DNA of 64,000 bases, from NCBI GenBank assembly GCA_963788655.1, contig CAWBHS010000072.1, forward strand, positions 352,001 to 416,000, given 5' to 3'. Positions within the stretch are counted from its first letter, which is position 1. Each line of letters starts with the position of its first letter. The DNA comes from an uncultured Verrucomicrobiae bacterium (GTDB lineage Bacteria > Verrucomicrobiota > Verrucomicrobiia > Limisphaerales > JAFGQR01). The notes beneath the pieces are model-generated. The model ran no database searches. It was not told the DNA's origin and saw nothing but the letters and a program-made list of their open reading frames with translations. A program made the translations under genes and the position numbers. Below are positions 1-59,935 of the stretch, in pieces.

Positions 1-2699
1 CGGATGACACATGGAAGCTCAAAGGCTTGCAGGCCGAATATCGCGGGCTGCACTTCCAAATCAGCGGCACCCTCACAAATGCCTCCGCGCTCCGCGATTG
101 GCGCTTTGCTCGGAAACCCAGCGCTGGTCCAGGAAAGATGGAAGACTGGCTCGACCGAATCGAGGCGATCGCGCGGCAAGTGTCCGTGGCCGGCACGCCG
201 GAGCTGGAGCTCGTGGTTCATGGCGACGCCCGGACGTTCCAGGATTTCCATGCGGGCATCAGCTTGCGGGCGGCCGGATTTGCTTCACCCTGGGGCCGTG
301 GCACGAACTTGATACTGTCCGCCAACCTCACGACCGCCCCGGATTCGAACAATACGGCGCACGCGTTTCTTCGATTATCCGCGGAACAGGCGGACACACC
401 TTGGGCGCAAGCCGGGCGGGTGGAGGTTGAATCCGACTTCGTCCCTTCATGGTCCGGCGTCATGCCCACCAACGCCGACCTCGAAATCCGGTTGCACACC
501 GCGCGGACTTCGGTTGGGCAAGCCGAAGCCATTCGGCTCCAACTTCATTCCCGCCCAGCGGCGACCAACGTGGCCGTGCGGCAAACGGACTTCACGCTGA
601 CGGCGGCGGCGCCGGTCAGTAAATGGGGCCGCGCCGATCAACTTCGGTTTACGGGGCAGTTGGCGCATTCGCCGACAAATTGGCTGCCGGCCTCCGAAAC
701 GACGCTGCTGGTGGTGAACCAACTCGAAACGCGTTGGGGCCGCGCGGACGCGGTGCAACTGCACAGCCGGGGCGCCTTGGGATCAACGAATGCCCTGATC
801 CGAACCAACCTGACCTGGCCCGAACGCCTGGCCGAGATTCCGTTCGCCGCGGACGGAACCATCACCAATCTCTCCACGTCCGAGGTGAACAGCGAACGCG
901 CCACCTTTGCCGTTCAATGGCAGGCGCCGCGACTGCACTTGGAAACGACCGCGGAGTTGGACGGCCATCTTGATGCCCGGGTCGATCTCGACACGGCGAC
1001 CCGGCAGTTGCAGTTCCACGTGGCCAGCCGGCTGGCCGCCCAACGAATCGTTTCCTGGCTGGGCACCAACGCGCCTGCATGGCTGAAGGACTTCTCGTTC
1101 TCGACCCCGCCGCAATTCCAGGCCGATGGAAGTTTGGTGCTGCCGGCCTGGACCAACCGGCCGCCTGACTGGCAGGGCGCAGTGCTGCCCACGCTCGCCG
1201 CGGAGGCGCGATTCGATTTGGGCGAATCCCGGTTTCGCGAACTTGAGGTGCAACAGTTGCGGAGTGCCTGGGCTTGCACCAACGGGGTCATTCAATTGCG
1301 GCGCTTGCAAGTCACCCGGCCCGAAGGCGGGCTGGAGGCTTTGGGCCATTACGATTTGGCGACCGGGGAATTTTTTGTGCAGACCGAAAGTCAGTTGGAT
1401 CCGAAAATCCTGCAGCCCTTGTTTCATCATCCCAAGGCGCAGCGGGGATTCGACATTGTGCAATTTACTGAGCCGCCGCGGATTCGGGCGCAGATGTCTG
1501 GGAACCGCAAGGATTGGACCGGCTGGCACGGCTCCGGCGAGATTGCGGTGACCAATTTTGCCGTGAGAGGCCAGTCGGCCCGCGATTGCGTGGCCCGGTG
1601 CGTCTATACCAATCAGTTCCTGTCCGTGCTGTCGCCCGTAATTGAACGGGAGGGCGAAATCGCCACGGCGGATGGAATTGGGATCGATTTGCGCCGCAGC
1701 CTGCTTTACCTCACGAACATTGCCGGGAACTTGAATCCGTACGCCCTGTTGCGCGCCATCAACACGAAGACCGCGCAAACCATCGAGCGCTATCAGTTCG
1801 CCGTCATGCCGCAAATCTCCGGCGGCGGGGTGATCGGCTTGAAGGCGCGGGATCATGCGGAGAACGTCCATTTTCACGTTGCGGGTGGGCCGTTCCACTG
1901 GCACGTGTTCAACCTGACGAACCTGTCCGGCGATGTTTCGGTGGTGGGTGAGACGGTGCAACTTACCAACCTGGTCGGCGGCTTCTACGAAGGCCGCTTG
2001 GCGGGCAATGCCTGGTTCGATTGGAGCGGCACGAACGGCACGGATCTGGGATTTTTCATCACCTTGCAGAACGCCAGCCTGGCTTTGCTGATGAAAGATG
2101 TCAGCAGCCAGACCAATCACCTGGAAGGCCGACTCAGCGGTTATCTGGACGTGACCCACGCCAATAGCGATGATCCGAAAAGCTGGGAAGGTTACGGCCA
2201 CTTGGAACTGGTGAATGGCTTGATTTGGGATATCCCGGTCTTTGGCCTGGTTTCCCGGATGCTGAACCAGTTCGTGCCCGGCCTGGGTTACAGCCGCGCG
2301 AAAGAGGCGGTAGCGGATTACAGCATCACGAACAGTGTCGTCTTCACCAAGGACCTCGACATTCGCGCGACCGGCATGCGCATGCATTACAAGGGCACGG
2401 TCGGGTTTGATGAAACGCTGGATGCCCGGGTGGAAGCGGAGTTGTTGCGTGACCTGCCGGGATTTGGTTTTCTCTTTTCCACCGTCTTGATGCCGGTAAC
2501 CAAACTGTTCGTGCTGAAAGTCACCGGCACCTGGAACGATCCCGTGACCGAACCGTTGTACATTATTCCCAATTTGGTTTCGAAAATCATTCTCGTTCCG
2601 TTCCGCCCGTTAAGCACTTTCAAAGAAATGTTGGTGCCCGAAACCAAGCCGGAAAAGCCCAATCCCGCAGATAATCCGCCTCGCCCTAAACCGGAATAA
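1..2699 (+). CDS. AsmA-like (AsmA_2/YhdP/TamB superfamily) envelope protein, 5'-partial
   Basis: Frame is open from base 3 (DDTWKLKGLQAEY...). Long beta-rich body. C-terminus ...GHLELVNGLIWDIPVFGLVSRML...MHYKGTVGFDETLDARVE...KLFVLKVTGTWNDP matches the AsmA-like C-terminal region. Confidence 0.75.
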   Translation, partial: DDTWKLKGLQAEYRGLHFQISGTLTNASALRDWRFARKPSAGPGKMEDWLDRIEAIARQVSVAGTPELELVVHGDARTFQDFHAGISLRAAGFASPWGRGTNLILSANLTTAPDSNNTAHAFLRLSAEQADTPWAQAGRVEVESDFVPSWSGVMPTNADLEIRLHTARTSVGQAEAIRLQLHSRPAATNVAVRQTDFTLTAAAPVSKWGRADQLRFTGQLAHSPTNWLPASETTLLVVNQLETRWGRADAVQLHSRGALGSTNALIRTNLTWPERLAEIPFAADGTITNLSTSEVNSERATFAVQWQAPRLHLETTAELDGHLDARVDLDTATRQLQFHVASRLAAQRIVSWLGTNAPAWLKDFSFSTPPQFQADGSLVLPAWTNRPPDWQGAVLPTLAAEARFDLGESRFRELEVQQLRSAWACTNGVIQLRRLQVTRPEGGLEALGHYDLATGEFFVQTESQLDPKILQPLFHHPKAQRGFDIVQFTEPPRIRAQMSGNRKDWTGWHGSGEIAVTNFAVRGQSARDCVARCVYTNQFLSVLSPVIEREGEIATADGIGIDLRRSLLYLTNIAGNLNPYALLRAINTKTAQTIERYQFAVMPQISGGGVIGLKARDHAENVHFHVAGGPFHWHVFNLTNLSGDVSVVGETVQLTNLVGGFYEGRLAGNAWFDWSGTNGTDLGFFITLQNASLALLMKDVSSQTNHLEGRLSGYLDVTHANSDDPKSWEGYGHLELVNGLIWDIPVFGLVSRMLNQFVPGLGYSRAKEAVADYSITNSVVFTKDLDIRATGMRMHYKGTVGFDETLDARVEAELLRDLPGFGFLFSTVLMPVTKLFVLKVTGTWNDPVTEPLYIIPNLVSKIILVPFRPLSTFKEMLVPETKPEKPNPADNPPRPKPE

Positions 2700-2762
2700 C
2701 CTTGCCGCCAAAGGCAACTGCCAGTCCGAATGTCAGGAAGCAATTCTGCCCGCCGAACATAT

Positions 2763-2800
2763 CTACGAAGATTTTCGGACATCTACGAATGGGTTCGTAG
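2763..2800. promoter_or_regulatory. Tandem palindromic operator upstream of blaI-like repressor
   Basis: CTACGAA-gatt-TTCGGAC (2763-2780) and the perfect CTACGAA-tggg-TTCGTAG (2783-2800), 20 bp apart, 31 nt before the ATG. BlaI/MecI/CopY repressors autoregulate through paired palindromes. Confidence 0.7.
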
Positions 2801-4300: not shown

Positions 4301-7300
4301 TTATTCCAAGTGGCGCTTTTGCAGTTCAAGTATTTCTTGTCGCAGGTGGGCAAGGTGTTGGGCTTGCTCAGCATTGCCCGATGACGTGTTCTGCAATCGG
4401 TCCAAATGAAACAATGCAGCGTTCCATTGTTGATGATCCATGCAGGCGTGAACTTGATTCTCGTGCCACGTCGCGAGTTCGGTTGGCGAAACCACAAATG
4501 CATCCGGGCAGCGGACGCGTAAGGACTCCCATCTTTGGTGGAGGGAGACTCGGCCGCCTGGCGCATTAGCTTCATTGCTGGTTGCAAGGGTGATACCGGT
4601 TTCCAGATCCGCCAGTTGGCCTAACTCGTCCGCTGTCTCATGGGCGAAAGGCAGTTTCAGGATGGCGGCTCCCCCGTGGTTATTAGCAGTGAGCAAGTAG
4701 CGGTCGTCCCCTGCGAATTGAACGCGTAACGCTAAAAAACCAATCGGCACCGGTGGCGTGATTGGTCGGCTCGTTGCTATGTCCCAAATCCGGGCCGTTT
4801 GGTGGCCGCACACCGTTACCAGCCATTGGCCGTTCTCGCTGAACGCCGCCCCGTAAACTTTCGATTTATGTTGCAACGGCATGGTGATGGGTTGTTTGGT
4901 GTCGGCGTCCCATACCATTGCTGTGAAGTCTTCCCCGGTGGTTACGAGGCGTCGCCCGTCGTCACTGAAGGCAACGTAGAGCACTCCGTCTTTGTGCGGC
5001 AGCGGCGGCCCAACGGATTGTCCATTACGGGTGTCCCAGACCTGTGCGACGCACTTGTTCAAGCCGTTATCCTGCGTGCCGGTAACCACCTGCTGTCCAT
5101 CGGGCCGAAATTGAACACACCACACTTCCTTGGAATGAAGGAGCGCCGGACAATGGAGCGCTCCGGAGTCAACCTCCCAAAGTTGGACCGAACGGCCGCA
5201 AACCGTCAGCAAAATGTGGCTGTCGGGACTGAACACGGCGTTGCTGATCGCGGCGGCCGTGTGTATCGGCGGCAAAGAAGGCTGTCCGGTACGGGCATCG
5301 TAAAGCTGCGCGGTCTGGTCGCTATACACCGCAACGTGTTGGCCATCCTCACTGAGGAGCACGCCCGTGCCAGCGGCTGCAATTGGGATCGGGGGCGAGA
5401 GTTTTTCTCCGGTCCTCACGTTCCCAACTTGAACGAGGTTTGACGCACCATTCATTCCCGAAGCGATTGAATATCGGGCAAGGATATAGCTGCCGTTTCG
5501 CGAGAGACTTGTCGTTTGCACCGGCTGAGGCAAATCAAGCGTCGGTTGGAAGGTGATCCCCGTGTTGACCTCCAGAATCTGCACTGTGTTGGACTGCCAC
5601 GTTAGCAGTTGGCCACTTGGCGAAATCGACGCGGGATGGATTTCCCGTCGCGCAGTGGCGCAGCCTGCCAAATCCCACACCCGGACGGTGCCGTCAGCGC
5701 AGGCCGACACGATCCGATGACTGTCCGGGTCGAAGGCCGCGTGGATCACTCCGCCGGAGTGTTTTAACATCGGGTGCCCGCGAACCGGTTGGCGGGAATA
5801 GGTATCCCATACCCGCACGGTTTTGTCAAAGCTCGAGGTGACGATCCAGCGGCCGTCTGGACTGTAATCGACGCTGGTGATGCCATCGTCGTGTTTCAGC
5901 GGCGGCGGCAATTCTTCACCGCTTTCCACTTCCCAAATCCGCGCGTTACGATCGTACGACGCGGTCACAATAAACCGGTCATCCGGACTGAAGGCTGCCC
6001 CGTAAACCCAGTTGGGATGTCGTAGGGGAGGGGCGGCCAGGTTGCCAGTGGTGGCGTCCCAGATCAAGGCAGTGTGATCGATGCTACAGGTCACAATCCG
6101 TCGTCCGTCATGGCTGAAGGCCGCATAGAGAATGAGGTCGGTGTGTTTGCGTAACTCACGCGCCAGCGTTCCGGTGTGAGCATTCCAGAGGTATGCGAGG
6201 TGATTGTTGCAAGCCGTCACCACCCATCGGTCGTCCGGGCTGAAGTGGGCGTTCTTGACTCGCGCGGGATGGGGTAATTGCCGGATGCGTTCGCGCGTCT
6301 GAGCATTCCAAATTGTCGCGGTTTTGTCCCAACCAGCCGTCACGATCCAAGTGCCGTCATGGCTAAACGAGGCGGTTTCCAGTCCGGGACCCGCCCCAAA
6401 CGGTGGGCCAACCGGTTGCCCCGAAGCCAGGTTGCAGATACGGGCTCCTCGGCGTTGCATGCTAATCAAGACGCGCGTCCCATCGGGGCTGAATTCAACA
6501 TCGTTGGCCGCCTCGTCCATGACCCACAAATGGGTCAGTTTGGGACAGGCGTCCAACACCGTGCCCAGCCGCAGCCGATGGGCAGGATCGTGTAGGCCGG
6601 GCTCCAGTTGCCAGGCCGCCGCAAAGGCCGGCAGCGAACTCAGAAAATCGCCGGCGTCCACGTCATGGATGCCATCAGCAATCATGCCGCCAATCTCCCG
6701 CTGTCGCATTTCGGCCGCGTGCTGGATTTCTCGATTGACAGCAACCCCCACAGCGAGCGCCACGCATCCCGCCACGGCGGCACCGATGCCAAGTCGCTTG
6801 GCCTTGGCCAGACGCTGCTCCAACCAATGCAGCCGTTTGATGGACTTGCCCTTGGACAACGCAAACAGGTCGGCGTGCAGATCGTGCGCGGTGGCGTAGC
6901 GCTCGGCCCGCTCCGGTTGGCAGGCCTTAATGATGATCTCATTAAGCTCAAGGCATTCCTCCGCATCCGGCCAAGTATTCAGCGCTCGCGGCAGCTCGGG
7001 GAATTCCTGCCGGTCCAAGCCCGTACTCAGTTCATAGAGCACTTTGCCCAGACTGTACACGTCCGCCTGAAACGTACCGGGGCCTTCCGGCGGAATGAAA
7101 CCCGTCGTGCCTACGTAAGTACGCGCCTCTTTAAGCGTGCGGACCAAACCGATGTCCGCCAACTTGGGCGTTCCGCGCACAAAGATGATGTTGGACGGCT
7201 TGATGTCACGATGCACCAATTCATGCCGGTGCAGATGATCAATGGCTTCGCTCAATCGCAAGCCCAGCGCGACACACTCGTTGGCCGGCAACCGGCCGCG

Positions 7301-7723
7301 CCGGGCTAGTTCGTCCGCCAACGTCTTGGGCACGTATGTCTCGGGATTCGGTACCCCACCAGGCGGACCGTCTTTTCGGTCGTCACCCAATTCCATTACG
7401 TAATAAAAAAAACCGGCCTGTTCATCCCGGCCGACTTGCAGCACGTCCACCAATCCGTCGTGCGAGCGCGAAATGGGTTCGAAGTTTTTGATGCCCTCAT
7501 ACTCCCGTTCCGCAAGTCGATCGGGATCTTGCTCATCCCAGACAACCACTTTGACCGCGCGCGACGTTCCCAAGCGGTTTAGCGCAAGCCAGACGGTACC
7601 ATAGCTTCCCTGGCCAATGCGACGCAGCACCTCGTGCTCCGGGATGTGCGGAATCAGGGGAGCAGCGTCCGTGGAAACGGTGTTGCCGGTTGTCTTGTGC
7701 TCTGAATCTTCGCGACTATTCAT
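4301..7723 (-). CDS. Hanks-type Ser/Thr protein kinase with hydrophobic segment and WD40 repeats
   Basis: IGQGSYGTVW, RAVKVV, HRDIKPSNII, KLADIGL, DVYSLG. Hydrophobic LGIGAAVAGCVALAVGVAV, then more than 10 repeats of the F(S)PDG..IVT...D.TA.IW type. Confidence 0.95.
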   Translation of the reverse strand: MNSREDSEHKTTGNTVSTDAAPLIPHIPEHEVLRRIGQGSYGTVWLALNRLGTSRAVKVVVWDEQDPDRLAEREYEGIKNFEPISRSHDGLVDVLQVGRDEQAGFFYYVMELGDDRKDGPPGGVPNPETYVPKTLADELARRGRLPANECVALGLRLSEAIDHLHRHELVHRDIKPSNIIFVRGTPKLADIGLVRTLKEARTYVGTTGFIPPEGPGTFQADVYSLGKVLYELSTGLDRQEFPELPRALNTWPDAEECLELNEIIIKACQPERAERYATAHDLHADLFALSKGKSIKRLHWLEQRLAKAKRLGIGAAVAGCVALAVGVAVNREIQHAAEMRQREIGGMIADGIHDVDAGDFLSSLPAFAAAWQLEPGLHDPAHRLRLGTVLDACPKLTHLWVMDEAANDVEFSPDGTRVLISMQRRGARICNLASGQPVGPPFGAGPGLETASFSHDGTWIVTAGWDKTATIWNAQTRERIRQLPHPARVKNAHFSPDDRWVVTACNNHLAYLWNAHTGTLARELRKHTDLILYAAFSHDGRRIVTCSIDHTALIWDATTGNLAAPPLRHPNWVYGAAFSPDDRFIVTASYDRNARIWEVESGEELPPPLKHDDGITSVDYSPDGRWIVTSSFDKTVRVWDTYSRQPVRGHPMLKHSGGVIHAAFDPDSHRIVSACADGTVRVWDLAGCATARREIHPASISPSGQLLTWQSNTVQILEVNTGITFQPTLDLPQPVQTTSLSRNGSYILARYSIASGMNGASNLVQVGNVRTGEKLSPPIPIAAAGTGVLLSEDGQHVAVYSDQTAQLYDARTGQPSLPPIHTAAAISNAVFSPDSHILLTVCGRSVQLWEVDSGALHCPALLHSKEVWCVQFRPDGQQVVTGTQDNGLNKCVAQVWDTRNGQSVGPPLPHKDGVLYVAFSDDGRRLVTTGEDFTAMVWDADTKQPITMPLQHKSKVYGAAFSENGQWLVTVCGHQTARIWDIATSRPITPPVPIGFLALRVQFAGDDRYLLTANNHGGAAILKLPFAHETADELGQLADLETGITLATSNEANAPGGRVSLHQRWESLRVRCPDAFVVSPTELATWHENQVHACMDHQQWNAALFHLDRLQNTSSGNAEQAQHLAHLRQEILELQKRHLE

Positions 7724-7926: not shown

Positions 7927-10482
7927 TCAGAATTTCCAATCCGGAGCAAAATCCAGTGCCTGATGGAACCTGCCGCCCCATACGCTTTGCTTGCCAAGGT
8001 GCTGGACTAACGAGGGGACATGGTAGTAGATCGGTCGCGGTAAGCGTCCGGCGAGACGCGACAATTTGATGTCCTGCATTCCCTCCACCTCGTCCCAATG
8101 CCGCAAAACATACGCTGCCGTCCGTCGGGGTAGAATGAACGCCTGACTGCCGTAGATCGCATTGGAACTCACAACGGCCGCATGATTGGGCACATCGTAT
8201 GCCAACTCGCGGACTCCTGGATTGTACAGGCTGGCCAGGGCCAGGCTGCCTTGGCGCAACGGCATCCAGTGTTCCAGATTGTGGCGCAAATGCTGATTGA
8301 AGTCCAAGTCATCCTCCAAAAACAGCACATAATCTGCGTCGTAATCCAAGCTGTGCTGCAAGGCTAACAAGCTGGTCTGGGTCTGCCGCTCCTGACGGCG
8401 TTCAAAGCGGTTGGCGTCCAGTTCAAGGTGTAGCCCGGCGTCGCCCCAGTCAGAGGCGGCCAACCGCTGCAAGGTTTGCTCTCGCAAGGATTGTCTATCG
8501 GCGCAGGAAATCATGCAGGCAACCAAACGGGGCCCCCGGCGTTTTGGGTATGGTATGGGCTTTGTCGCTGAGAGGTTCGCAAACCGGCTCAGACCTCCGT
8601 CCCAGCGTTCCTTCAGCCGCTGAAGCGCGGCCCGGCACTCCGCTTCGCCCCGAAAGTCCGGCACCACCTGGTTGCGCCCCAGCAAATCCCATTTGTCAGT
8701 GTTCCGATGTTGGAAAATGCGCCGACCGGTAAAGTCATGTTGGCACATCGTGCCTTCCAGCGCGTGAATCGGATGGGGGACCAGGGAATAGGATTGCTGG
8801 AGTTTGCAGAACGCCAAATGAAACGTCTCCTTGTCGCCGTACAAATGCCGGTAGTAAAAGTCCGAGTGTTCATTAAACCACAGGCTCAGCCGCAACGCCC
8901 GCCCGCATCGGGCCTTGTCCACGGCGATTTGGCCTGATTCAAATTCTGGCTCGGGCGGCCGGGCAAGCCCGCAATTGTCCCAGATGATTTGGGACTTTTC
9001 CAATTGGCCGAAGTCCGGCCAGAAAATGGCGCCGGTTCGACGAAATTCAGGTGTATCAAACAAAAACTCGGGGTTGACAACCGGTACATTGTCCGCGTCC
9101 AGCAATAACACCTCACGAAACGGAGCGTGCAAAATCGCATAAGGTTTAAGCTGCCAGCCGCCCAAGACGCGCACCGGCGCGCGTCGGCGTACTTTCAGGG
9201 CATCGATGCATTCCACATCGAACGGCTGCAAGAGCGCTTTCATGGATGCATCCATTTCCGGCGCTCCTAAATACCATAATTGGATGGGCAGACGACAGTT
9301 CTGTTGCCGCAGCATGTTAATTCCCACCCAGGCGTTGACGAACAGCTTGGCACCGCCTGCGCAAATCACGATCCCACGGCCGTGATGTTTCACCCGAGGC
9401 ATGGTGAGGCTTTGTACCGCTTGCTCGAGCGCAGGCCGAGCGGAATGGAGGTTCAAGGGTTGCCGGTCGAAATCGTTCGTGGCAGTCGCCCGGACAGCTT
9501 TGCCGGCGGCGCGCCGCTCTGGACCGGTCAAGGATTGCCGCGATCCGGCCGCGAAATATAATTCGATGCGGCGGATGACTTCGGCTGGATTGATCAGGTC
9601 CATGCACCGCGGCAGCCCATTCACCGCCTGCAAACATTGGTGATCGGGATGATCTCGTTCGTCGCCATCTCCCAATGGCTGCACCCGATCGCGCCAACAG
9701 CCCCCGGTTGCGCAACAAGGCAAACTGCCAATGGTGTGTATAAACTGATGTCCGGGGTAGGCTTCCCAGTGAGGGGGTTCTCGGCCGCCAGCGATGACGA
9801 CACATGGCCGCAATGGGGCTGTGCCTTCTTTGGTTTCCACCGCTGCTGCCAAGTGCATGAGTGCGGTCACCGGACAGAGCACTCCTTGGGCGTGGTAAAC
9901 AAGTCGCACCAGTTCCCGCAAGGTCGTCTGGCCGCGTAAATCGATTGCGCCATTCAACTTGGGGTGGTGATGGCCGTTCTGACCCACTTGCACGAACTGA
10001 ATCTTACCACGCAAACCATCCACCACCGCTTGAAACCGTTCGGTAGCCCACCATTTGATGGTGATATCGTATTTCCCTCCCGCGGCGACGATCCAAAACG
10101 GAATGTCACGCTGGGTCAGTTCATACACTTGGGAATACCAGGACTTCTCCAACTCGGACAAGTGGATATCCCCACGGTAATCCGTCGGCTTGATCGAGAT
10201 TTGCAACCGCTCGCTGAGTAACTCGGTCAGTGCGTGCAGGCAATGGTACGGAATCCAATCACAGCGGTTAATCAGCGGATAGCTGCACTCGACAACTGCA
10301 ACGTCGGGATCATTCTCCTCCAACGGTGTTATGTGGGGATTGTTCTCCCACAATTCCGGGCAGGCGGTGCGGACATCCGTCAGGAATTGACCGGGATACC
10401 AGCGGTGCAAATCCCGCACCGCTGCCGTCATCATCACGATGTCGCCCGGCGAAAATCCGTTATGTAAGATGATTTTGCGCAT
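7927..10482 (-). CDS. Three-domain glycosyltransferase: GT9 (heptosyltransferase-like) + GT71 (Mnn2/Mnn5-like mannosyltransferase) + C-terminal GT-A domain
   Basis: GT9: SPGDIVMMTAAVRDL...IKWW...IDLRGQTTLREL...LMHLAAAV. GT71: GRGIVICAG...KPYAILHAPFREVLLLDADN...GAIFWPD...ESGQ..VDK...YGDKETF. Third domain: VLFLEDD...YGSQAFIL...PSLVQHLG. Confidence 0.85.
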   Translation of the reverse strand: MRKIILHNGFSPGDIVMMTAAVRDLHRWYPGQFLTDVRTACPELWENNPHITPLEENDPDVAVVECSYPLINRCDWIPYHCLHALTELLSERLQISIKPTDYRGDIHLSELEKSWYSQVYELTQRDIPFWIVAAGGKYDITIKWWATERFQAVVDGLRGKIQFVQVGQNGHHHPKLNGAIDLRGQTTLRELVRLVYHAQGVLCPVTALMHLAAAVETKEGTAPLRPCVVIAGGREPPHWEAYPGHQFIHTIGSLPCCATGGCWRDRVQPLGDGDERDHPDHQCLQAVNGLPRCMDLINPAEVIRRIELYFAAGSRQSLTGPERRAAGKAVRATATNDFDRQPLNLHSARPALEQAVQSLTMPRVKHHGRGIVICAGGAKLFVNAWVGINMLRQQNCRLPIQLWYLGAPEMDASMKALLQPFDVECIDALKVRRRAPVRVLGGWQLKPYAILHAPFREVLLLDADNVPVVNPEFLFDTPEFRRTGAIFWPDFGQLEKSQIIWDNCGLARPPEPEFESGQIAVDKARCGRALRLSLWFNEHSDFYYRHLYGDKETFHLAFCKLQQSYSLVPHPIHALEGTMCQHDFTGRRIFQHRNTDKWDLLGRNQVVPDFRGEAECRAALQRLKERWDGGLSRFANLSATKPIPYPKRRGPRLVACMISCADRQSLREQTLQRLAASDWGDAGLHLELDANRFERRQERQTQTSLLALQHSLDYDADYVLFLEDDLDFNQHLRHNLEHWMPLRQGSLALASLYNPGVRELAYDVPNHAAVVSSNAIYGSQAFILPRRTAAYVLRHWDEVEGMQDIKLSRLAGRLPRPIYYHVPSLVQHLGKQSVWGGRFHQALDFAPDWKF

Positions 10483-10652
10483 CAAGCTTCAGAGCGCAAG
10501 CGAGTTAGATACTCGAATTGCCGCGCTGAAGCCCAGCAGCGCAGAGGGCGCCGCTTAGCTCATCGGGGATTCAGCCGAGGCATGAACAAACCGCCTCCCC
10601 CTAGTCAAATCAGTTTCAATGGTTCGTTCAATAAATGAGAACCGGCAGTGGC

Positions 10653-12732: not shown

Positions 12733-12872
12733 CCAAACACCCGCTTGGGAGAAATTTGCCGTTGTGACGTTTCATAAAGAAGTATTAATCAAAGAGCCAG
12801 CCGAAGCCCACGGCGGTTGCGGGAACCCCGTTATCGTTAATTTCAGGTGGGATTTTTGCTGGAGTTTTTTCA

Positions 12873-12899
12873 GAACTTTTTCGTCTATCATTCATCTAA
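12873..12899 (+). promoter_or_regulatory. Sigma-E-type ECF promoter
   Basis: GAACTT (12873-12878), 16-nt spacer, TCTAA (12895-12899), about 60 nt before the start at 12961. Matches the RpoE/AlgU consensus. Confidence 0.6.
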
Positions 12900-12960
12900 A
12901 AAACATGTTAGAAGACTCGCTATCACCTGCGGTTGTAGTGTTTGCAGGAAAGGTCCCCGA

Positions 12961-27409: not shown

Positions 27410-27857
27410 GGGCAATCGAAACCCCAGACCTTGGCCGCCAGCCATCGTAGAGCATTTCGATCCGGCAAGCGGTGTGCTACTGCTGTTGTTTGAAGCGGCC
27501 CCTGTGCATGTTTTAAGGCGGCACGATCAAAGCATGGGCCGTTGCGGTCCACTCCAAAATGCCGGTGTGCGAGGCGCACGCTAAACGTTGGTGAGACTCC
27601 CGCCTGGATTTCGGAACGTCCAGCAAGTATTGGATTCCGCGTGGGCTTCCGCCACTTTCGTATTACTCGCTCGCTACCAAAGATGCCCTTAGCGGCGGTA
27701 GGTGCGGATTACGGCTTTCACACGTTAAAAGCCTGGGCAAAACTGAATTATACATTCGACGAATTGGGGGAATGCTGGTAATCTGTAACCGAATTATTCA
27801 GGGATGTTTGCACCGAATTTAGTGGCCACCTTGTGCGTCAAGAGAAGTAACCTAAGT

Positions 27858-36800: not shown

Positions 36801-37106
36801 GACGCCGCCCTCGACTATGATGGCGACGGCCTTTCGAACCTCGAGGAATACTACGCCGGCACGTTGCCCGACGACGCCCAAAGCCGGCTGGGTCTGACGA
36901 TTGCCGTCACGGATCAAGTGGTGCTGACTTTTACCGCCAATCCCGATCGCGCCTACGTGATCGAATTCAAGGACGAATTAGCCGGCGAGACTTGGCTGCC
37001 GTTGGCCACCATTTCCGCCCAAGCCACCACGCGAACCGAACAAGCGACTGACACCCCGCCGACTACCTCCCGCTACTATCGCCTGCACATGACGCAATGG
37101 CCTTGA
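27858..37106 (+). CDS. Giant secreted LTD/CotH-kinase protein 2 (about 3080 aa rejoined): LamG, Ig domains, LTD, CotH, beta-helix, multiple LTDs, Ca-binding repeats, C-terminal RYYR domain
   Basis: ORFs 27804-32264, 32101-34602, 34529-35485 and 35229-37106 joined by +1 shifts near 32093, 34527 and 35329. VINEIMYHP/EYIEL LTD motifs. GMRIRGSGSR and PHDFDTVLG CotH motifs. Confidence 0.85.
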
Positions 37107-44709: not shown

Positions 44710-45082
44710 GACGGGCAGTTTGACAAAAAGAAGAACCAAACACGAAGCGATTTGTTGAATGAAACGCTACCGAACGACCGATGAAAAAGCATTCACAGTT
44801 TTTGAGTTGGGCAGGTCACAGTACAGCGGCTGGCGTTACCGCCCCGAGTTCAAGTAAGGTCGGTGAGTGGAAGCCAGCCGGTCAGGTTACCCGCTGCACG
44901 GTGGCTGCCGCTGTGGTAAGGTTTCTGCCCGAATTCCGCCCCAGTTGGTATTTTGCAAACCATGATTTTTCCATTTATGGCACGGAAGGGAGGAGGCAGT
45001 ATTCCGCCGATGCACGGCGTACGTCAGCAAGTTTCCGGGAACCCAGCGGGGGGCACGTTCCTCTTACCTTGGGAAAGGCTGC

Positions 45083-48124: not shown

Positions 48125-48439
48125 GCGCAGCCACATGTTTAGCAAAACCACGGCCAAGATCAACAGCGGTTCACCCGGCGAGCGGCTGGCCTCTTGCCGG
48201 CAGGGCGCACGAGGGAAGGCCAATTGAACGGGGCCGATCGATTCGTGGGCGCTTGTGACATTCGATTCTGCCGGCGAGACGCCGACAGCACGCTTAATCA
48301 CCCCGCCTGGATCTTGACATTCCGCCGGTATTTATGGTATGCCATCAGCCGTGAAGCCCCGAAGGAACAACAACTCATTTCGTTTAGACTCGTGTTGGGT
48401 CTATCAGCCAAAGCCATCCCCACAATATTGAGAATCCCT

Positions 48440-51300: not shown

Positions 51301-51474
51301 TGTTTACCCGCGGAACTCACTCGATTGTGCCAAACTCCGTCGCGCCATGAATACCCTCGTCACTTCCTAAAACCAATCGCCGGAACCGCGACCAACCTGA
51401 AGGGCGTTGGACATTCGGAAAAGATTCTGTTGCTGCTGCTCCGCGATTATGTTACGAACACGTTACGAAGCCAC

Positions 51475-54400
51475 ATGAAACCGTTGCCTGTTTTATTATC
51501 TTTGGGATCGGTCGCTGTGCTCCTTGGCGCTCTCTCCAGCCCCGGCCAAGTGGTTCTCTCCGAATTCATGGCCATCAATGGCAGTTCTCTCGCGGATGAG
51601 GATGGCGAGCATTCCGACTGGATCGAAATTCACAATTACACCGCCCACGCCGTCAATTTGCTTAATTGGTCATTGACGGACAATCCGGGCAATCCCGCCA
51701 AATGGAGATTCCCGGCCACCAACCTCAATGCCGGTGATTTCCTGATCGTGTTTGCCTCGGAGAAGGACCGGCGGACGCCAGGTGCGCCGTTGCACACCAA
51801 CTTCAAACTTTCCGGTAACGGTGAGTATTTGGCGTTGCTCTCGCCGGAGCGGGTCGTCGTTACGGAATTTGCCCCGGAATACCCGCCGCAATTCGCTGAG
51901 GTGGCTTATGGATTCACCATTCCGGTGACCAATTTCACGTTGGTCGCCACGGACGCACCCGTCCAGGTGATGGTGCCAGCGGACGATGGTTTTGGCAGTG
52001 CCTGGACGCTGCCCGGATTCGATGATAGCGCGTGGATCGCCGGCACGAACGGCGTGGGCTTTGACACCGGCGAAGCCGATCCGGAAGGCGGCAGCGTGTC
52101 GTTTACCAACGCAATTCACACGGATTTGAGCGACGTGATGCCGGGGCAGAACAGTTCCGCCTATCTGCGTTATGCGTTCAACCTGGATGATCCGTCGCAA
52201 GTGAATCGCCTGGTGCTGCACGTTAAATATGACGACGGTTTTGTGGCGTATCTCAATGGCAACAGGGTGGCTTGGCGTCAGGCCCCTGACGAATCGGCTT
52301 ATGATTCCGCCGCTACGGCACCGCATCCAGATGACGCGGCACTGCAATTTGAAGAGGTAAGCCTCACCGATTCTGCCGGCGCGCTCTTGGTCGGCCCGAA
52401 TGTGCTGGCGATACAAGGATTGAATGTCAGTGCGACGAATGTGGACTTCCTGATCGTCGCGGAATTATCCGCTGACACGCTGGGCGACTATAGCCCCGAA
52501 CCACGGTACTTCACGCATGCAACTCCCGGTGCCCCCAATGGTCTGGGTACCACCGACCTGGGGCCAATCATCAGCCGCCTGGATGCCATCCCCGCGCCAC
52601 CTTATCAGCCAACGGACGCGGACGACCTCACCGTAGTGGCCCAAGTCACGCCGTCCTTTTCCCCAGTGACGAACGTGGTCCTGAACTGGCGGGTAATGTT
52701 CGGACCAACCAATACCACGCCCATGCGGGACGACGGTTTGCACGGTGACGGCCTAACGGGCGACCGGATTTACGGCGCCATCATTCCGGCGGGCGCGGCG
52801 ACCAACGGCCAGATGGTGCGCTGGTATGTCACGGCGCACGATGCCCAAGGCCGCCAGTCGCGCTGGCCGCTGTTTGAAGATCCGAACAACTCGGCGGAAT
52901 ACTTGGGCACCGTTATCGTCGATCCGAACGTCGTTACCAAGCTGCCGCTCTTCCAAGTTTTTATCTCCTCCGAGAACGTAGCCGGCATCGACCTCGAAAG
53001 TGGGGCGCGCGTGTCGTTTTTCTACGACGGCGAGTTCTACGATAACATTTACATGGAACGGCGTGGTAACACGACGGCAGCCTACCCCAAGAAGTCGCAC
53101 CGCTTGGAGTTTAATTCCGAGCATCCGCTGCGACATCCCGGCCCCGGCGGACGCATTCTGAAAACTTCGTTGCTGGCCGAACACGCGGACCCGTCCTATC
53201 TGCGGCAGCACCTGTCGTTTTGGATGATGGATTTGATGGGCGTTCCGACACCGTTCGATTATCCCGTGCGCGTCCAGACCAATGGTGTCTTTTACCAGCT
53301 TGCGTTTCACAATGATGTGCTGGGCAAGGACCAGGCGGAGCGCTTGGGGTATCCGCCGAATGGCGCCCTCTACAAAGCGGCCGGCACCATTCAGACCAAT
53401 TATTACAGCACCGGTGGTTTCGAGAAGAAAACCCGACAGTGGGAAGGCCGGGAGGATTACGATGCGTTGGTGTTGGGCATCATTGAAACGAACAGTCTCG
53501 CGGAACGTCGCGCCTATGTTTTTGATCACTTGAACGTGCCGGAGATCATCAACTATTTAAGCGTGGCGCGGTTCACTGAGGAAGGCGACGACGTCTGGGC
53601 CAACATGTCGTTGTATCGCAACACGGACGGGAACGGCGAATGGAGCATTATTCCGTTCGATTTGAACGTCTCCTGGGGCCAACTCTATTGCGGCGATGCG
53701 CCGACGTTGTTCAACACGATCGTGGCCACCAACGACGCCCAGAAAAGCCATCCGCTGTACGGCGGCTCGCAAGTGAAGGTCGGCTATCGTCCCGACGTGT
53801 GGAACCGCATCTACGATGTGATCATCGCCGTGCCGGAAACGCGGCAAATGTTGTTGCGTCGCATTCGCACGCTCATGGACAAGTTTGTGCAGCCGCCCGG
53901 CACGCCGTTCGAACAGTCTATCATCGAACAGCACATTGTCAGCGTTACCAATCTGATCTGGCGCGAGGCGTTTCTCGATCGGGAGAAATGGGGTTGGCCC
54001 TGTTCCGGCACGTGCGGCATGTACTGTTGGGGGACCGATTTGTGGCTGACCAACGGGGTGGACGGTTTGATCAGCGAGTTTAACGAACCGCGACGGGAAC
54101 ATTTCTTTTTCACCCATTGCGTGGTGAACACGAACGTGCCGGTCAGCTTGGGCAACAGTTACAATGCCGGCATTCCCCTCGAACAACCCAACGATACGTG
54201 GCTTTGGGTCAGCGAACTGGACTACAATCCTGCCTCGGGTAACCAAGCTGAAGAATACTTATGCCTGACCAATCCCAATCCGTACGCGGTGGACTTGTCC
54301 GGTTGGAAACTGGACGGCGCCGTGCGGTTCGCATTCCAGTCGGGAACGGTGATTCCTTCCAATAGCGTGCTCTACGTATCGCCCGACGTGGTGGCGTTCC

Positions 54401-57400
54401 GCGCCCGCACGAATGGTCCCAATGGCAGCCAGGGGTTCTTCGTGCAGGGACCTTATCAGGGACAACTATCAGCCCGTGGAGAAACGTTGCTGATCAAGAA
54501 CGACCATGGCTTGGTGGTCAGCACCAACACCTACGTGGGCGATCCGAGTCCGGCGCAGCAGTATTTGCGCATTACGGAACTGATGTTCAATCCCGCTCCG
54601 CCGTCGGGCTATCCGGGCGATGCGCAGGCGTTCGAATTCATCGAACTTAAAAACATCGGGCCGGCGCCGCTCGACTTGACCGGAGTCTATTTTACCAACG
54701 GAATTCAATTCGCCTTTGCCGGCAGCGCGGTGACGAGCCTGGACCCAGGACAAATCGTGCTCGTGGCCCAGGATGTGACCGCGTTTACGGCCCGATACGG
54801 AACGGGCTTCAACCTTGCCGGCCAATACGAGGGATTCCTGGATAACGCCGGGGAGCGAATCCGGTTGTTGGATGCGCACAATGAAGAGATTCTGGACTTC
54901 GAATATAACGACACCTGGTATCCCGCCGCGGACGGGTTTGGTTTCTCGTTGGTCATCGTGGACGAAAATGCCGAACCGGATCTTTGGGGTGACCGCAGCA
55001 ATTGGCAACCCAGCGGAACGCGTGATGGTTCGCCCGGAACTCAGCCGGCTGTGCCGGCGATTGCGCCGATCATCATCAATGAAGTGCTCACGCACACCGA
55101 CCCGCCGCTTCAGGATGCCATCGAGATCTTCAATCCCACCGGCGACGAAGTGGATGTTGGCGGCTGGTTTCTAACGGACGACCGGAATACGCCGCAGAAG
55201 TATCGCATTCCCGACGGCACCCTGATTGCCGCCGGTGGTTATCGCGTTTTCTACGAAACGAATTTTAATCCGTTCCCTGGTGTGCCCCCCAGCTTTGCGC
55301 TGAGTTCGGACGGCGACGAAGTGTATCTCTACTCGGGCGACGCGCAGACCAATTTGACTGGTTACGCGTATGGCCTGGCGTTTGACGCGGCGGCGAGCGG
55401 AGTATCGCTTGGTTGGTACACCAACAGCGTTCGTGAAACCCATTTTGTGCCGCAAGCCACCGTGAGCCTGGGCAGCGACAATGCGGGCCCCAAAGTGGGG
55501 CCGGTCATCATTCGCCAAATTATGTATCACCCGCTGGACTTGCTTGGTGGCTTGGACAACCCAGCGGACGAGTTCATCGAATTGCACAACTTGAGCGACC
55601 AGGCGGTGCCCTTGTTTGCGCCGATGTTTCCGACCAACACTTGGCATCTCCGGGGCGGCGTGGAGTTCGACTTTCCGACCAATGTGACATTGCCGCCGGG
55701 CAATTCCCTGCTGGTCGTGAACTTTGATCCGAACCATGCGGAAACGCTTACGGCATTTCGTTCGCGGTATGTCACAGTCGCCGACTTGCCGGTTTATGGT
55801 CCGTACAGCGGTAAGTTGGACAATGATACCGACCGCGTGGCGCTCAACCGTCCCGATACGCCCAACGCCAACGGCGTGCCGCGCATTTTGGTGGAGGAAG
55901 TCAATTATCACGACGCGTCGCCGTGGCCGGACGCGGACGGCAACGGGGCTGCGCTTCAGCGGCTGGACCCGACGCAATACGGCGATGATCCGGTCAATTG
56001 GCGGGCGATTTCCGATTTGGCCAATCTCACTGCGTGGCCACACACCAATATCGTGTTCAGCGTGGTGGCCATCGGCGCCGGCCCGTTGCAATACCAATGG
56101 CAGCACAATGGAACCAACCTCGAGGGAGCGACCGCGGCATCCCTGGCGATTGACGATGTCGAGCCCATAGACGCCGGTGAATACTGGGTCATTATCACCG
56201 ATGATGCCGGTTCGGTTCAGGTGGGGCCGGCGGTGCTAACGGTGCCGGTCGAGCCGACGATCTTGCACCAACCGGTCCCGTCGCACTACGACCTTGTCGC
56301 GGGAAATACGGCGACTCTGAGCATCGCTGCGGCCAGTAGCACCACGCTGCGCTACCAGTGGTTCCACGACGATGCGGAATTGCCCGGAGAAACCAATGCC
56401 ACTCTGGCACTGGCCAATGCCCAGGCGGCCAATGATGGCGATTACACGGTTCTGGTTGCCGACGATTACGGCTCGGTCTTGAGCGACACGGTGAACCTCA
56501 AGACCTGGGTGCGGCCGACCATTTCGGTGGCCTCATGGCCGCAGCCACGCAACCAATCGGTGGTGGCGGGCGGCACGGCCACGATTACGGTGGCCGTACA
56601 GACCACCGCCACGCTGCCTTTGTTGTACCGCTGGAAGCGCATCGACTGGGAAACCAACTATGTCTATGAACTGGATTCGTACACGAATGTGTTGGTGCTG
56701 ACGAATATCAATGCCGTGGACCATGCCGGTGGCTGGCGGGTAGTCGTGAGCAATTTTGCCGGCGAAGCCAGCACGTTCTTCACCGCCAACCTCACCGTGC
56801 TCGAACCACCGACGATCACCGAGCAGCCTGACGGACCAGTTGGTGAATCCAGGCGAGACGGCGACGTTCTCGGTCACCGCCGCGGGGACGGCGCCTTTCA
56901 GCTACCAGTGGTGGCACAATGAAGCTGATCCGGTCAGTGGGGCCATGGGAGCCATATTGTCGGTGCCGGACGCTCAACCCGGGATTAACGACGGTGCCTA
57001 CAGGGTAATCGTGACGAACAATTACGGTGCGGTCACGAGTGACGTTGCGCACTTGATCATTCGTGCGGAGCCGGGTGTCGTTACCCAGCCTACCAATCAA
57101 ACCGTTACTCCCTGTGCCTCCAACGTGGTGTTCTGTGTCGAGGCGGAGGGCGGCGGCCCGTACACGTACCAATGGTATTTCAACGACACCAATGCCTTGC
57201 CCGAGGCGACCAATGCCACTTTGGTGCTATCCAATTTGGATCTGGCCGCGCTGGGCAGTTTCCAGGCGGTCGTGACCAATGCCGTGGGTGCCGTCACCAG
57301 TCAGGTGGTGGTGCTTTCGTATCTTTGGGGCGACTGTGACGGCGACGGTCTGCCGGACCAATGGGAATTGGAGCATGGTTTGGCGGCGAATGATCCGGCC

Positions 57401-57747: not shown

Positions 57748-58035
57748 GTAGGACAGGCGTCCCGCCTGTCCTGAAACTCCGGAGGACTTCGACATGGGCC
57801 GCAACGCCTCATTCAGCGATAAGCCTGTCGAGGTGTTCAGGAAGCCCAGAGCAATATGATTAACGCTCTGGTGGGACGGCTTGCGTTTTGGCGCGCCAGC
57901 GTTTGGAGTGCGTCCGGCTTGCCGGCGCTTTCGCAGGGGGATTGGGGTCCAATACTCAGCGGCATGAAGTTGGTATTCATGCGTTTCACTTTCATTGAAA
58001 GCGGGAGCAAGCTCCGCGCACTCCAAACGCTCCGC
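57748..58035. repeat. Composite REP-like element, copy B
   Basis: GTAG-GACAGGCG-tcc-CGCCTGTC (57748-57770). 42-nt unit at 57892-57933. Inverted partner at 57991-58035. Confidence 0.85.
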
Positions 58036-58195
58036 TTGAATCGGAAGCCGCAGGATTGGCAGGCCAACAAAAGACGATTCGATGACGTCAATGCACACCG
58101 CCATACTGATCGCTTGGAACATGCCACAAACAATCGAGCCGGCAACAATGCCGGCGCTCCGATTTGCAGGTCATTTGAGGTAAAGTCGGAACCGG

Positions 58196-58516
58196 CTAAC
58201 GCCCCGATGACGCTTGCTTGCATTCGTCCGGTCGAATGCCAAACAACACGCAGCCCAAGCCCAGCGTTCCGGTCAAAACGCCCAAGCCCAATGCGCATTT
58301 GCTGGTGAGCGGCCTTTCGGTCTCGCCCTGCACTCCGGGAAGGCCCTCGAGCATGATCGCCCGGTTCTGCACCTCGCGAGCGTTGGCCTCGTCACTTTGG
58401 TAGGCAACGAAAAAGCAGGCAGCCCCGAGCAACAGCAAGCCGTAGCCAATGCGTCGCAACCGGCGCCGCTGGGCCGGAGTGGCAAGGGAGAATTTCCATG
58501 CGTTCATAAGCGCCAT
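58196..58516 (-). CDS. Small two-TM membrane protein
   Basis: Basic N-terminus (QRRRLRR), then two hydrophobic segments (IGYGLLLLGAACFFVAY; ALGLGVLTGTLGLGCVLFGI). Confidence 0.55.
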   Translation of the reverse strand: MALMNAWKFSLATPAQRRRLRRIGYGLLLLGAACFFVAYQSDEANAREVQNRAIMLEGLPGVQGETERPLTSKCALGLGVLTGTLGLGCVLFGIRPDECKQASSGR

Positions 58517-58606
58517 AGAAACACGCGCCCGGGCGACTGCAAGATTAAAGAAGCCGCAGTGACTTGCAACCCGGCCAAATGGGGTGAAGATGGCGTGGTG
58601 AACGGC

Positions 58607-59935
58607 ATGAAGTTGCGCAGATGTTTTCTCTGGGGTGAGCTGGTTGGGGTGCTAACGTTATGTGTTGGTGCCGCCATTGCCACGGGAAGCGCGCCCGCCT
58701 CGGGCGCAATCGTTGGCACCTCGCCAACCAGTTCCAATGTGGATTCCCCCTTAACTCCTAGCCGGGACGATCGCGCCACGACCAACCAACCCGCCGGCCC
58801 GGCCAAAACCTCACCGGTTAATGCCAATGCCGTTTTCGAAAAGGCGCGCCCGGCCGTGGTGGTGTTGCGGCCGGTTAATGCGCGCGGGCAGGGGAACACG
58901 AAAGGCACCGGTTTTCTGATCAGCGCCGACGGCTTGCTGGTAACGGCCCGCCACGTTTCGGAATCGGGTTCCGAGATGTTTGCCGTCACGTCCGATGCCC
59001 GAAAACTCGACGTGACCGGTTTTGTCGGTGAAGACACCGATCATGATGTGGTGGTCTTGAAGGTCGAAGGAACCAATCTGCCATTCCTGCCGTTGGCCGC
59101 TTATGATCTGCCGCGGACTAATGAGTGGGTTAGCCTGGTCGGCAATCCCGGCGGCGGCGGGTTGGCGTTTCCCACCGGGACGGTGGTGGGCGTGGCCGGC
59201 ATTCCGGGGGTGCTGGAGGACGTGTTGACGACGATCCCGGTGCGCCACGGTCACAGCGGTTCACCCATGTTGAATCTGCGCGGGGAAGTGGTCGGGGTTG
59301 CGGTCGCCGCCATGGCCAATTATGACGGCGTCGCCATTCCGGTGAAAGTCATCAAGCGAATTCTGGCACGGGCTGGCACCAATGCTCCGGTGCCCTTCAC
59401 GAAACGCCCCCGCAAAGGTCGCCTTACCCCGGTCGGTTTGGATCCGGATTTCCGCCTGGCCCGCGAAGCCATGGGCCACCAGAACTGGGCCGAGGCCGTG
59501 AAGCGATTGCAGCAAGTGATTCGACGCTACCCGGAAAGTGCAGCGGCCGACTTGTTCCTGGGTTACAGCTATACCCAGCAACAAGACTGGGCCAATGCGC
59601 TTGCGACGTTCAAACGCGCGGTGCAACTCCGCAATGACAGCGCAGTGCTTTGGTTCTTTTACGGCACGGTGCTCGTGACGAAAGGGCTGGCGGCCGACGG
59701 TGTCGAAGCGTTGAAGAAATCCATCGCGCTCCACCTCGACGACCCGTCCCGGCTGATCGCCGCCTGGTCCACCCTGGCAACGGTGGCGGCCAAAGAAAAC
59801 AAGGAAACGGAAGCGCGCGATGCCTTGGAGCAGTTGCGTCGCCTGGATGCAACCCGAGCGGCGGAATTAAAGATTCAACTCTGGCGGTTCTGCCCCAAAC
59901 TGATGCTGCCAGTGGAAGATAGGACAGGAAAATAG
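58607..59935 (+). CDS. Trypsin-like (S1C) serine protease with C-terminal TPR repeats
   Basis: GTGFLI..DG..VTARHV, HDVVVLKV, GHSGSPMLN.RGEVVGV. TPR helices follow. N-terminal signal/TM segment. Confidence 0.88.
   Translation: MKLRRCFLWGELVGVLTLCVGAAIATGSAPASGAIVGTSPTSSNVDSPLTPSRDDRATTNQPAGPAKTSPVNANAVFEKARPAVVVLRPVNARGQGNTKGTGFLISADGLLVTARHVSESGSEMFAVTSDARKLDVTGFVGEDTDHDVVVLKVEGTNLPFLPLAAYDLPRTNEWVSLVGNPGGGGLAFPTGTVVGVAGIPGVLEDVLTTIPVRHGHSGSPMLNLRGEVVGVAVAAMANYDGVAIPVKVIKRILARAGTNAPVPFTKRPRKGRLTPVGLDPDFRLAREAMGHQNWAEAVKRLQQVIRRYPESAAADLFLGYSYTQQQDWANALATFKRAVQLRNDSAVLWFFYGTVLVTKGLAADGVEALKKSIALHLDDPSRLIAAWSTLATVAAKENKETEARDALEQLRRLDATRAAELKIQLWRFCPKLMLPVEDRTGK

Follow-up and report, generated by a model that had tools for sequence, protein, structure and literature searches.

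Why is threonine followed so often by asparagine in the exported proteins encoded by one stretch of a verrucomicrobial genome? The stretch (the window) comprises 64,000 nucleotides of an uncultured Verrucomicrobiae bacterium, positions 352001 to 416000 of contig C72 in an 8.96-Mb assembly of 115 contigs that is 86% complete (G000). The original prediction, made from the letters of the window, proposed that a periplasmic glycosylation or other modification system recognises the Thr-Asn (TN) dipeptide, or more generally (T/S)-N. We find that the TN excess is real and directional, TN being raised and Asn-Thr (NT) lowered, and that it reaches beyond the window. The best reading of the pattern is a periplasmic modification sequon, to which we assign a probability of roughly 45%.

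To measure the excess genome-wide we used 6,177 genes called in G000 by a crude, home-made codon-usage caller of open reading frames (ORFs), and assigned localisation classes with an equally crude, home-made heuristic based on signal peptides and hydrophobicity, giving 1,624 signal-peptide (SP) proteins and 3,058 nominally cytoplasmic ('CYT') proteins. Observed dipeptide counts were divided by the counts expected after correction for the composition of each protein (O/E). TN is the most over-represented abundant dipeptide of the SP proteins, with 3054 sites against 1985 expected (O/E 1.54, bootstrap 95% 1.45–1.62), and NT is lowered to 0.86; the comparison of TN with NT under composition control, set beforehand as a check, thus came out in favour of a TN bias (3054 TN vs 1711 NT, binomial P = 3e-85). 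'CYT' proteins have a TN O/E of 1.27 (bootstrap 95% 1.18–1.35) with NT at 0.79, and across the G000 protein sets NT stays between 0.74 and 0.88. When residues of the SP proteins were shuffled inside 15-residue blocks, TN reached 2063 ± 42 against 3056 observed (z ∼23) and NT 2062 ± 37 against 1713 observed; since the shuffles fall short of the observed TN and NT is depleted, local Thr- and Asn-rich composition is ruled out as the cause. The effect is limited to Thr and to Asn, as S-N (0.88), T-D (0.96) and T-Q (0.75) are not raised in SP proteins. Other dipeptide biases in G000 do not distinguish exported from cytoplasmic proteins: HM, HK, YK and NK fall below expectation (0.5–0.7) and CH, HC and GK exceed it (1.4–1.6).

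The excess follows the compartment. The 871 'CYT' proteins in which 26% or more of the residues are charged have 201 TN sites against 224 expected (0.90), and SP proteins of equally high charge have 136 against 89 (1.52), so composition or fold class alone cannot account for the contrast. 'CYT' proteins with fewer than 20% charged residues reach 1.58, and the top TN carriers of this class are PPC, RHS, TSP3 and PD40/DPPIV proteins; the enriched part of 'CYT' looks like exported proteins missed by the signal-peptide heuristic. The conserved cytoplasmic orthologs of G000 (n = 84) have a TN O/E of 0.90, and proteins with a motif resembling that of twin-arginine translocation (Tat) substrates (n = 81) have 44 sites against 51.9 (0.85). 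Among SP proteins the subclasses behave alike: lipoprotein-type 1.50, a proxy for outer-membrane proteins 1.42, other SP 1.54.

The bias acts on amino acids, as had been proposed from the varied codons in the window. In G000 the Thr-Asn codon pairs have O/E values of 2.1 for ACC-AAY, 1.0 for ACG-AAY, 1.1–1.3 for ACA-AAY and 0.3–0.5 for ACT-AAY, and the general bias at the same junction for other amino acids is ∼1.4 for NNC-AAY, ∼0.65 for NNG-AAY, 0.8 for NNA-AAY and 0.3 for NNT-AAY. All four Thr codons therefore lie ∼1.5-fold above the general NNX-AAY bias, and because they rise alike once the NNC>NNG>NNT-AAY bias is removed, a DNA-level or codon-pair cause is ruled out. This codon-pair bias before Asn codons is strong in the coding regions and extends to nearly all amino acids, with ACC, ACG and ACT before AAA/AAG and AGY behaving similarly. 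Stretches without called genes also have more ACNAAY (3588) than AAYACN (2562); they probably hold uncalled genes.

The signal extends over about four residues. After the Asn, the residues that carry the excess at N+1 are C, A, L, W, G and S (1.7–2.1), with no contribution from P, D, N, K, E or M; at N+2 they are W, V, P, T, L and I (1.9–2.5), and K, R, E, D, G and H stay at 0.7–1.0. L, V, G, S, P, A and I are favoured before the Thr, which gives a core of approximately [L/V/G/S/P/A/I]-T-N-[A/L/G/S/C/W]-[W/V/P/T/L/I] with charged residues excluded at N+2 and with hydrophobic, beta-like flanks. T-N-[AGSL]-[VILWMFPT] occurs 674 times against 272 expected in the SP proteins of G000 (2.47), at 0.79 in outgroup SP proteins and 5 times against 6 in the conserved cytoplasmic orthologs; TNx[KRDE] in G000 SP proteins is at baseline (0.84). 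No single repeat and no extended consensus was found around TN beyond these ∼four residues. Known motifs are not raised in the same proteins (N-x-T 1.09, N-x-S 1.00, D[ST][AILVMT] 0.87), and just 496 of the 3056 TN sites (16%) lie in N-x-S/T, in line with the observation in the window that most do not. The wider form (T/S)-N did not hold up: genome-wide, Thr alone is enriched, and Ser does substitute for Thr at conserved sites.

The trait is confined to the order Limisphaerales/Pedosphaerales, where most members have it. We followed it through the orthologs of the strongest TN carrier of the window, an AsmA-like protein, in 20 relatives, one from each of 20 different families of the order. Orthologs with 30–51% identity exist in 20 of 20, and 17 have 7–21 TN sites against 1.0–4.4 expected; the exceptions are G018 (3 vs 1.3), G010 (5 vs 4.0) and G003, in which the fetched piece had something other than the ortholog as its longest frame. 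A profile scan of genome contigs returned 80 loci, their titles mostly naming Verrucomicrobia/Verrucomicrobiota, Limisphaerales or Pedosphaera metagenome-assembled genomes from many independent studies. The 78 AsmA-like ORFs in these loci have 1080 TN sites against 221 (4.9) and NT at 0.73, and the TN O/E of their neighbours is 3.12 for SP proteins (699/224) and 1.20 for cytoplasmic-type proteins; the orthologs and conserved neighbours within the order are related, and these counts overstate the number of independent events. Several loci (L088, L101, L098, L089 and others) are clear orthologs on contigs titled Akkermansia muciniphila, Bifidobacterium sp., Candidatus Binatia or Limnocylindrales, which are probably mislabelled bins.

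Outside the order we sampled 300 kb from each of four Verrucomicrobiota genomes of other orders or classes. TN O/E was 0.92, 1.00, 0.90 and 0.87 in their exported classes and 0.90, 0.88, 0.54 and 0.73 in their cytoplasmic classes, and AsmA-family proteins from elsewhere in the phylum had 5 TN sites against 6.2, 14 against 17.4, 11 against 12.0 and 1 against 4.6. TN was also unremarkable in a 50-kb sample of Escherichia coli; the cytoplasmically folding proteins of G000, Tat substrates among them, match the baseline of other bacteria. Orthologs outside the order with an equal TN rate had been named beforehand as a finding that would speak against the proposal, and they do not show it: in 44 pairs of exported orthologs G000 has 61 TN sites against 36.9 expected (1.65) and the outgroup 39 against 44.8 (0.87; P = 4e-6), and in 84 cytoplasmic pairs the values are 40 against 44.5 (0.90) and 30 against 41.7 (0.72). 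Within the order, the deep member G010 has no excess (55/61, 0.90) and the most divergent AsmA-like ortholog; its GC content is 0.42, compared with 0.57–0.69 in the other sampled members, and it is a useful natural negative control. The excess in G017 is modest (∼1.3).

The ORFs of the window that carry these observations are as follows, with TN sites given against the number expected and domains from Pfam.

1–2699 (ORF 27–2699), forward strand: AsmA-like ORF, the strongest TN carrier of the window; TN 19 vs 3.0, NT 2.
4301–7723, reverse strand: Ser/Thr kinase-WD40 protein, a cytoplasmic-type control (Pkinase, WD40); TN 0 vs 2.5, NT 5.
7927–10485, reverse strand: 852-aa glycosyltransferase, a cytoplasmic-type control (Mannosyl_trans3, GT9); TN 1 vs 1.0, NT 1.
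12847–14724, forward strand: surface-protein ORF (Big_7, Laminin_G_3), ∼2-fold; TN 9 vs 4.3, NT 3.
14642–17860, forward strand: surface-protein ORF (Big_7, Laminin_G_3), ∼2-fold; TN 13 vs 6.0, NT 4.
20908–25113, forward strand: giant of exported type at baseline (CotH, LTD); TN 6 vs 7.6, NT 7.
27804–32264, forward strand: giant at baseline for which a signal peptide is predicted (Big_7, CotH, LamG, LTD); TN 6 vs 6.7, NT 4.
35229–37106, forward strand: LTD-domain protein, enriched; TN 7 vs 2.2, NT 1.
43342–44739, reverse strand: GFO/IDH/MocA oxidoreductase with a Tat signal (N-terminal RR motif), not enriched; TN 1 vs 0.8, NT 0.
48194–51184, forward strand: S8 subtilase with Ig domains (Peptidase_S8, Fervidolysin prodomain, Ig_3/I-set); TN 13 vs 3.9, NT 1.
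51325–56922, forward strand: giant with five LTD domains, CotH and Ig, the sole CotH giant of the window with a strong TN excess; TN 33 vs 8.1, NT 10.
58214–59935, forward strand: trypsin-like peptidase with TPR (Trypsin_2, TPR), mild excess; TN 4 vs 1.4, NT 2.
60237–61736, reverse strand: second GFO/IDH/MocA oxidoreductase with a Tat signal (RR motif), not enriched; TN 1 vs 1.1, NT 1.

The counts first reported for the AsmA-like, S8, trypsin-TPR, kinase-WD40 and glycosyltransferase ORFs, and the complete lack of TN in the BlaI-like ORF and both sigma factors, were reproduced from the translated ORFs; Pfam bore out the domain names, and the caveat that the Tat oxidoreductases are not enriched stands. 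Summed by hand, the 14 exported-type ORFs of the window have 135 TN sites against ∼54 expected and 47 NT sites. In the AsmA-like ORF ∼19 of 39 Asn lie within TN (Poisson P = 6e-10). This ORF had been described as 890 aa long; its 19 sites are correct, and the gene begins upstream of the window, so that the full-length protein has 1072–1104 aa, 20 TN and 46 Asn. The statement that the CotH giants carry dozens of TN sites applies to the 51325–56922 giant, where they are evenly distributed (3–5 per 200 aa), and not to the others: the 20908–25113, 27804–32264 and 32101–34602 (6 vs 4.7) giants are at expectation and the 25016–27409 CotH/LTD giant is mildly raised (7 vs 3.3). Positions 12847–37106 form a run of CotH, LTD, Big_7 and Laminin_G giant ORFs whose ends overlap (14642 vs 14724, 25016 vs 25113, 32101 vs 32264), and the same kind of overlap recurs further along the window (56756 vs 56922), which suggests frameshifts, assembly errors or split genes.

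The division among the giants of the window is found throughout the genome. Per-protein TN counts are over-dispersed and NT counts are not, the latter fitting a single Poisson rate of 0.74; a mixture fit to the SP proteins places 54% of them at 2.1-fold and the remainder at 0.71. Export alone is thus insufficient for the excess, and the proposed division into exported and cytoplasmic proteins holds in that Sec-exported proteins are raised and conserved cytoplasmic and Tat proteins spared, and fails for the many exported giants at baseline. GC content at third codon positions (GC3) and composition are equal in TN-high and TN-low sets, and thus do not mark the TN-low proteins as products of horizontal gene transfer. 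A signal for PEP-CTERM sorting or another destination is rejected as the explanation, the lipoprotein-type, outer-membrane-proxy and other SP proteins being alike in TN; the 41 proteins hit by a loose PEP-CTERM pattern, most of them false matches, have a TN O/E of 1.33.

The lowest SP cases (among others, TN 0 vs 9.7, 0 vs 7.1 and 1 vs 8.6) are copies of one family that are 92–99% identical, and with this family set apart the low tail fits a baseline subpopulation. Active avoidance of TN in exported giants is therefore not borne out. Domain-level homologs of the lowest-TN proteins in the relatives have 110 TN sites against 73.4 in sum (1.50). A giant Ig/PA14/GLEYA/Big_5 protein occurs in G000 in at least four copies that are 92–99% identical (C39:168628–173904, C66:41163–45137, C70:1–3246 and C55:3–2582); the copies are nearly devoid of TN, some contain in-frame TGA stops, and no full-length ortholog was found in the 20 relatives. 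They represent either a recent expansion or an assembly duplication.

The AsmA-like protein allows individual sites to be followed. Its match to the Pfam AsmA family scores 18.6 bits (E = 9e-4), below the cut-off of 29.8. An AlphaFold2 model built with 53 orthologs in the alignment (mean pLDDT 81.8) has a helix at residues 64–95 near the N-terminus followed by ∼60 strands in a long beta-rich rod, and so is predicted to have the N-terminal anchor helix and long repeating beta-groove rod of AsmA-like proteins. The best Foldseek match is LPD-3 (E = 3e-7, probability 1.00), followed by LptD and ApoB100, with the low TM-scores expected for a rod. The protein thus resembles the AsmA/TamB/YhdP and LPD-3/BLTP1 lipid-transfer proteins in architecture, and differs from the AsmA family in its sub-threshold Pfam score and in the TN excess that AsmA-family proteins outside the order do not have. 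When the 20 TN sites were mapped onto the secondary-structure states assigned by DSSP, 4 fell at strand-to-hairpin junctions, 6 within strands, ∼7 in loops and ∼3 at helix starts; judging by the model, they share no single structural setting.

Across the 53 orthologs TN appears somewhere in 103 alignment columns, of which 13 are common to more than 20 sequences and 40 are singletons, with a mean of 15.4 sites per protein. At the 11 best-conserved sites the Asn is kept and the Thr changed 94 times (Ser 52, Ala 24), and the Thr is kept and the Asn changed 21 times (Asp 12); a ten-sequence alignment gives the same pattern, with Asn steadier than Thr. Opposite 103 TN sites of G000, outgroup proteins have TN 12 times, TD 6, TS 4 and RD 4, and otherwise varied polar or charged pairs, with R, K and D in excess opposite the Thr and D and S opposite the Asn. 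These residues suggest that TN sites were gained at polar, probably exposed positions.

A search for an enzyme that could write a modification on TN covered several known families. No match to STT3 (PF02516; positive in four control archaea) or to GT41 (PF13844) was found in the 86%-complete G000. It has seven Wzy_C, two PMT/PMT_2 and two TMEM260-like GT-C genes. At C70:33816–39232, a GT-C gene of PMT/PMT_2 type (538-aa frame) follows directly downstream of a further pair of AsmA-family genes. The TMEM260-like genes encode GT-C proteins with TPR at C7:91169–95209 (1346 aa) and C38:139873–142797 (974 aa), with 47–74% identity across the order, and are present in 21 of 21 genomes of the order. 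Elsewhere in the class, 1–2 of 20 genomes from other orders have them, and beyond the class 21 of 40. Two genomes without the trait, G010 and G043, have them too, and G007 (91% complete), with 7 TN sites against 1.4 in its AsmA ortholog, yielded no long paralog. Profiled against the trait, as had been proposed for candidate oligosaccharyltransferases, the TMEM260-like genes are not co-distributed with it, and the pair stays a loose candidate. In the available text of a preprint, animal TMEM260 reads the primary-sequence sequon Px6Px3Px2GGx3T and prefers Thr (bioRxiv 10.64898/2026.09.21.753134). The parallel with the TMEM260/TMTC/PMT O-mannosyltransferases is the presence of two such GT-C and TPR genes in all 21 genomes of the order together with the Thr preference described for the animal enzyme; the animal sequon, as given there, is unrelated to TN, and the gene family does not follow the trait.

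Several explanations of the excess have to be weighed. It might reflect no selection at all and result incidentally from mutation or codon-pair bias, Thr- and Asn-rich composition at the local scale, the expansion of a few repeat families or errors in gene calling. The strong general bias at NNX-AAY, the ACNAAY surplus in uncalled stretches and the repetitive giants among the top TN carriers fit this account, which does not explain why the four Thr codons are equally raised after the general bias is removed, why NT is depleted and local shuffles fail to give the excess, why the conserved cytoplasmic proteins of G000 are at baseline and unrelated exported ortholog families are not, why TN-high and TN-low sets have the same GC3 and composition, or why the excess recurs in metagenome-assembled genomes from many independent studies. 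The codon, paired-ortholog and charge and shuffle controls have already largely refuted it, and we regard it as very improbable. Second in rank, though rather unlikely, is a lineage-specific solution to a structural or folding problem, in which Asn, which tolerates a left-handed backbone, follows the beta-branched Thr in hairpin turns, beta-bulges and helix caps, or in which TN forms a code for a lineage-specific periplasmic chaperone, in either case with no covalent change. The steadier Asn (94 Thr changes against 21 Asn changes at 11 sites), the many sites at strand-to-turn junctions or in mid-strand with the hydrophobic alternation shifted by one as in a bulge, the hydrophobic and beta-like flanks and the lack of enrichment in Tat substrates, which fold in the cytoplasm, all fit such an account. 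Against it, orthologs and proteins of the same fold beyond the order manage without TN, so the fold does not require it; the sites lie in four different structural settings; and the outgroup residues are varied polar or charged pairs rather than the turn formers Gly, Asn and Asp. Nor, to our knowledge, has any proteome been found to adapt a dipeptide to a chaperone.

Proteolysis or quality control, ranked third, could also impose a motif on exported proteins, if a lineage-specific peptidase in the periplasm or among the secreted proteins, or else a checkpoint in export or sorting, recognised or were blocked by T-N-x-hydrophobic, and if long-lived envelope proteins gained it and others did not. 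The restriction of the excess to extracytoplasmic proteins of one lineage, the bimodal TN counts among exported proteins and the wealth of secreted peptidases in the genome (the S8 and trypsin-like ORFs of the window are examples) are compatible with this; we consider it improbable, as no candidate peptidase or checkpoint was identified, the similar values of the SP subclasses mark no destination, and twenty sites per protein are unlike a sorting signal. We rank the modification sequon first because the pattern is a directional, four-residue motif at the amino-acid level, restricted to one lineage and to Sec-exported proteins, present in unrelated families and structural settings, and made up of both conserved sites and sites that turn over. 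As far as is documented, a modification sequon is the only cause of a pattern of this kind known from bacteria. Several observations weigh against the sequon. Neither a modification nor an enzyme to write it has come to light: STT3 and GT41 were not found in the 86%-complete genome, and the TMEM260-like genes do not follow the trait. Roughly half of the SP proteins are at baseline, including clearly extracellular Ig, PA14, HYR, cadherin and CotH giants, and a topology test of membrane proteins, with a prediction too crude to carry weight, gave in the expected direction only 1.65 outside against 1.24 inside. Where sites are conserved, Ala takes the place of Thr 24 times and Ser 52 times, with the Asn retained, which suits a structural Asn as well as a sequon; the better conservation of Asn fits both readings. 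The gene and signal-peptide calls come from home-made heuristics, and the outgroup samples cover 300 kb per genome.

If the TN motif is a modification sequon, it would be read on unfolded polypeptides emerging into the periplasm by a lineage-specific modifying enzyme, and selection would fix some sites and allow others to turn over. The acceptor could be the better conserved Asn, with the Thr at −1 as recognition element, or the Thr, with the Asn as determinant; an Asn-linked modification with a Thr determinant at −1 could constitute a new sequon class. The modification would most likely be glycosylation, as the parallel with the O-glycosylation sequon of Bacteroidota, D-(S/T)-(A/I/L/V/M/T), suggests. 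As presented in the available text of a 2025 review (PMC12871550), this motif is enriched phylum-wide, occurs in about half of non-cytoplasmic proteins, has a transferase that is still undiscovered, and is the only known motif-driven bacterial O-glycosylation. The analogy, already drawn for the window, is apt in that the motif is enriched across a lineage there too. On the same source, both systems use a short motif in which a hydroxy-amino acid stands beside a polar residue and a small or hydrophobic one comes next, concern about half of non-cytoplasmic proteins, and combine a detectable lineage-wide enrichment with an undiscovered transferase. They differ in that D[ST][AILVMT] is not raised here, Thr and not Ser is used, the lineage is an order of Verrucomicrobiota rather than a phylum, and the putative system of this order is known from sequences alone. 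Asn-centred sequons of exported proteins are also recognised by PglB/STT3 (D/E-X-N-X-S/T), which works in the periplasm, and by the cytoplasmic N-glycosyltransferase (HMW1C/GT41; N-X-S/T), from which TN differs in its determinant at −1 rather than +2, in the baseline N-x-T and N-x-S values and in the lack of STT3 and GT41 matches in G000. Of the proposed periplasmic glycosylation or other modification system recognising (T/S)-N, the Thr-Asn core and the exported substrates are retained in this reading; the Ser alternative is dropped, and the search for STT3 and GT41 found neither.

We would suggest, more tentatively, that TN marks the second motif-driven general protein modification system in bacteria, with T-N-x-hydrophobic written periplasmically on Sec-translocated chains by an enzyme outside STT3 and GT41. 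A search of the full-text literature found nothing on a TN motif, nor on glycoproteins of Pedosphaera, Limisphaera or other Verrucomicrobia, and the available text of the MatureP paper makes no mention of TN (PMC5468347). If the modification reading is true, a second and independent sequon would stand beside that of Bacteroidota, in Verrucomicrobia that are abundant in soil and freshwater and barely cultured, and such systems would be discoverable from genome sequence alone through proteome-wide motif statistics. The trait-positive and trait-negative genomes of one order would form a contrast set for finding the enzyme, and the finding would bear on the expression, modelling and metaproteome detection of the envelope and secreted proteins of the group. 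If the motif is structural instead, a preference for one dipeptide throughout a lineage and in one compartment would remain a rule of protein evolution in need of explanation.

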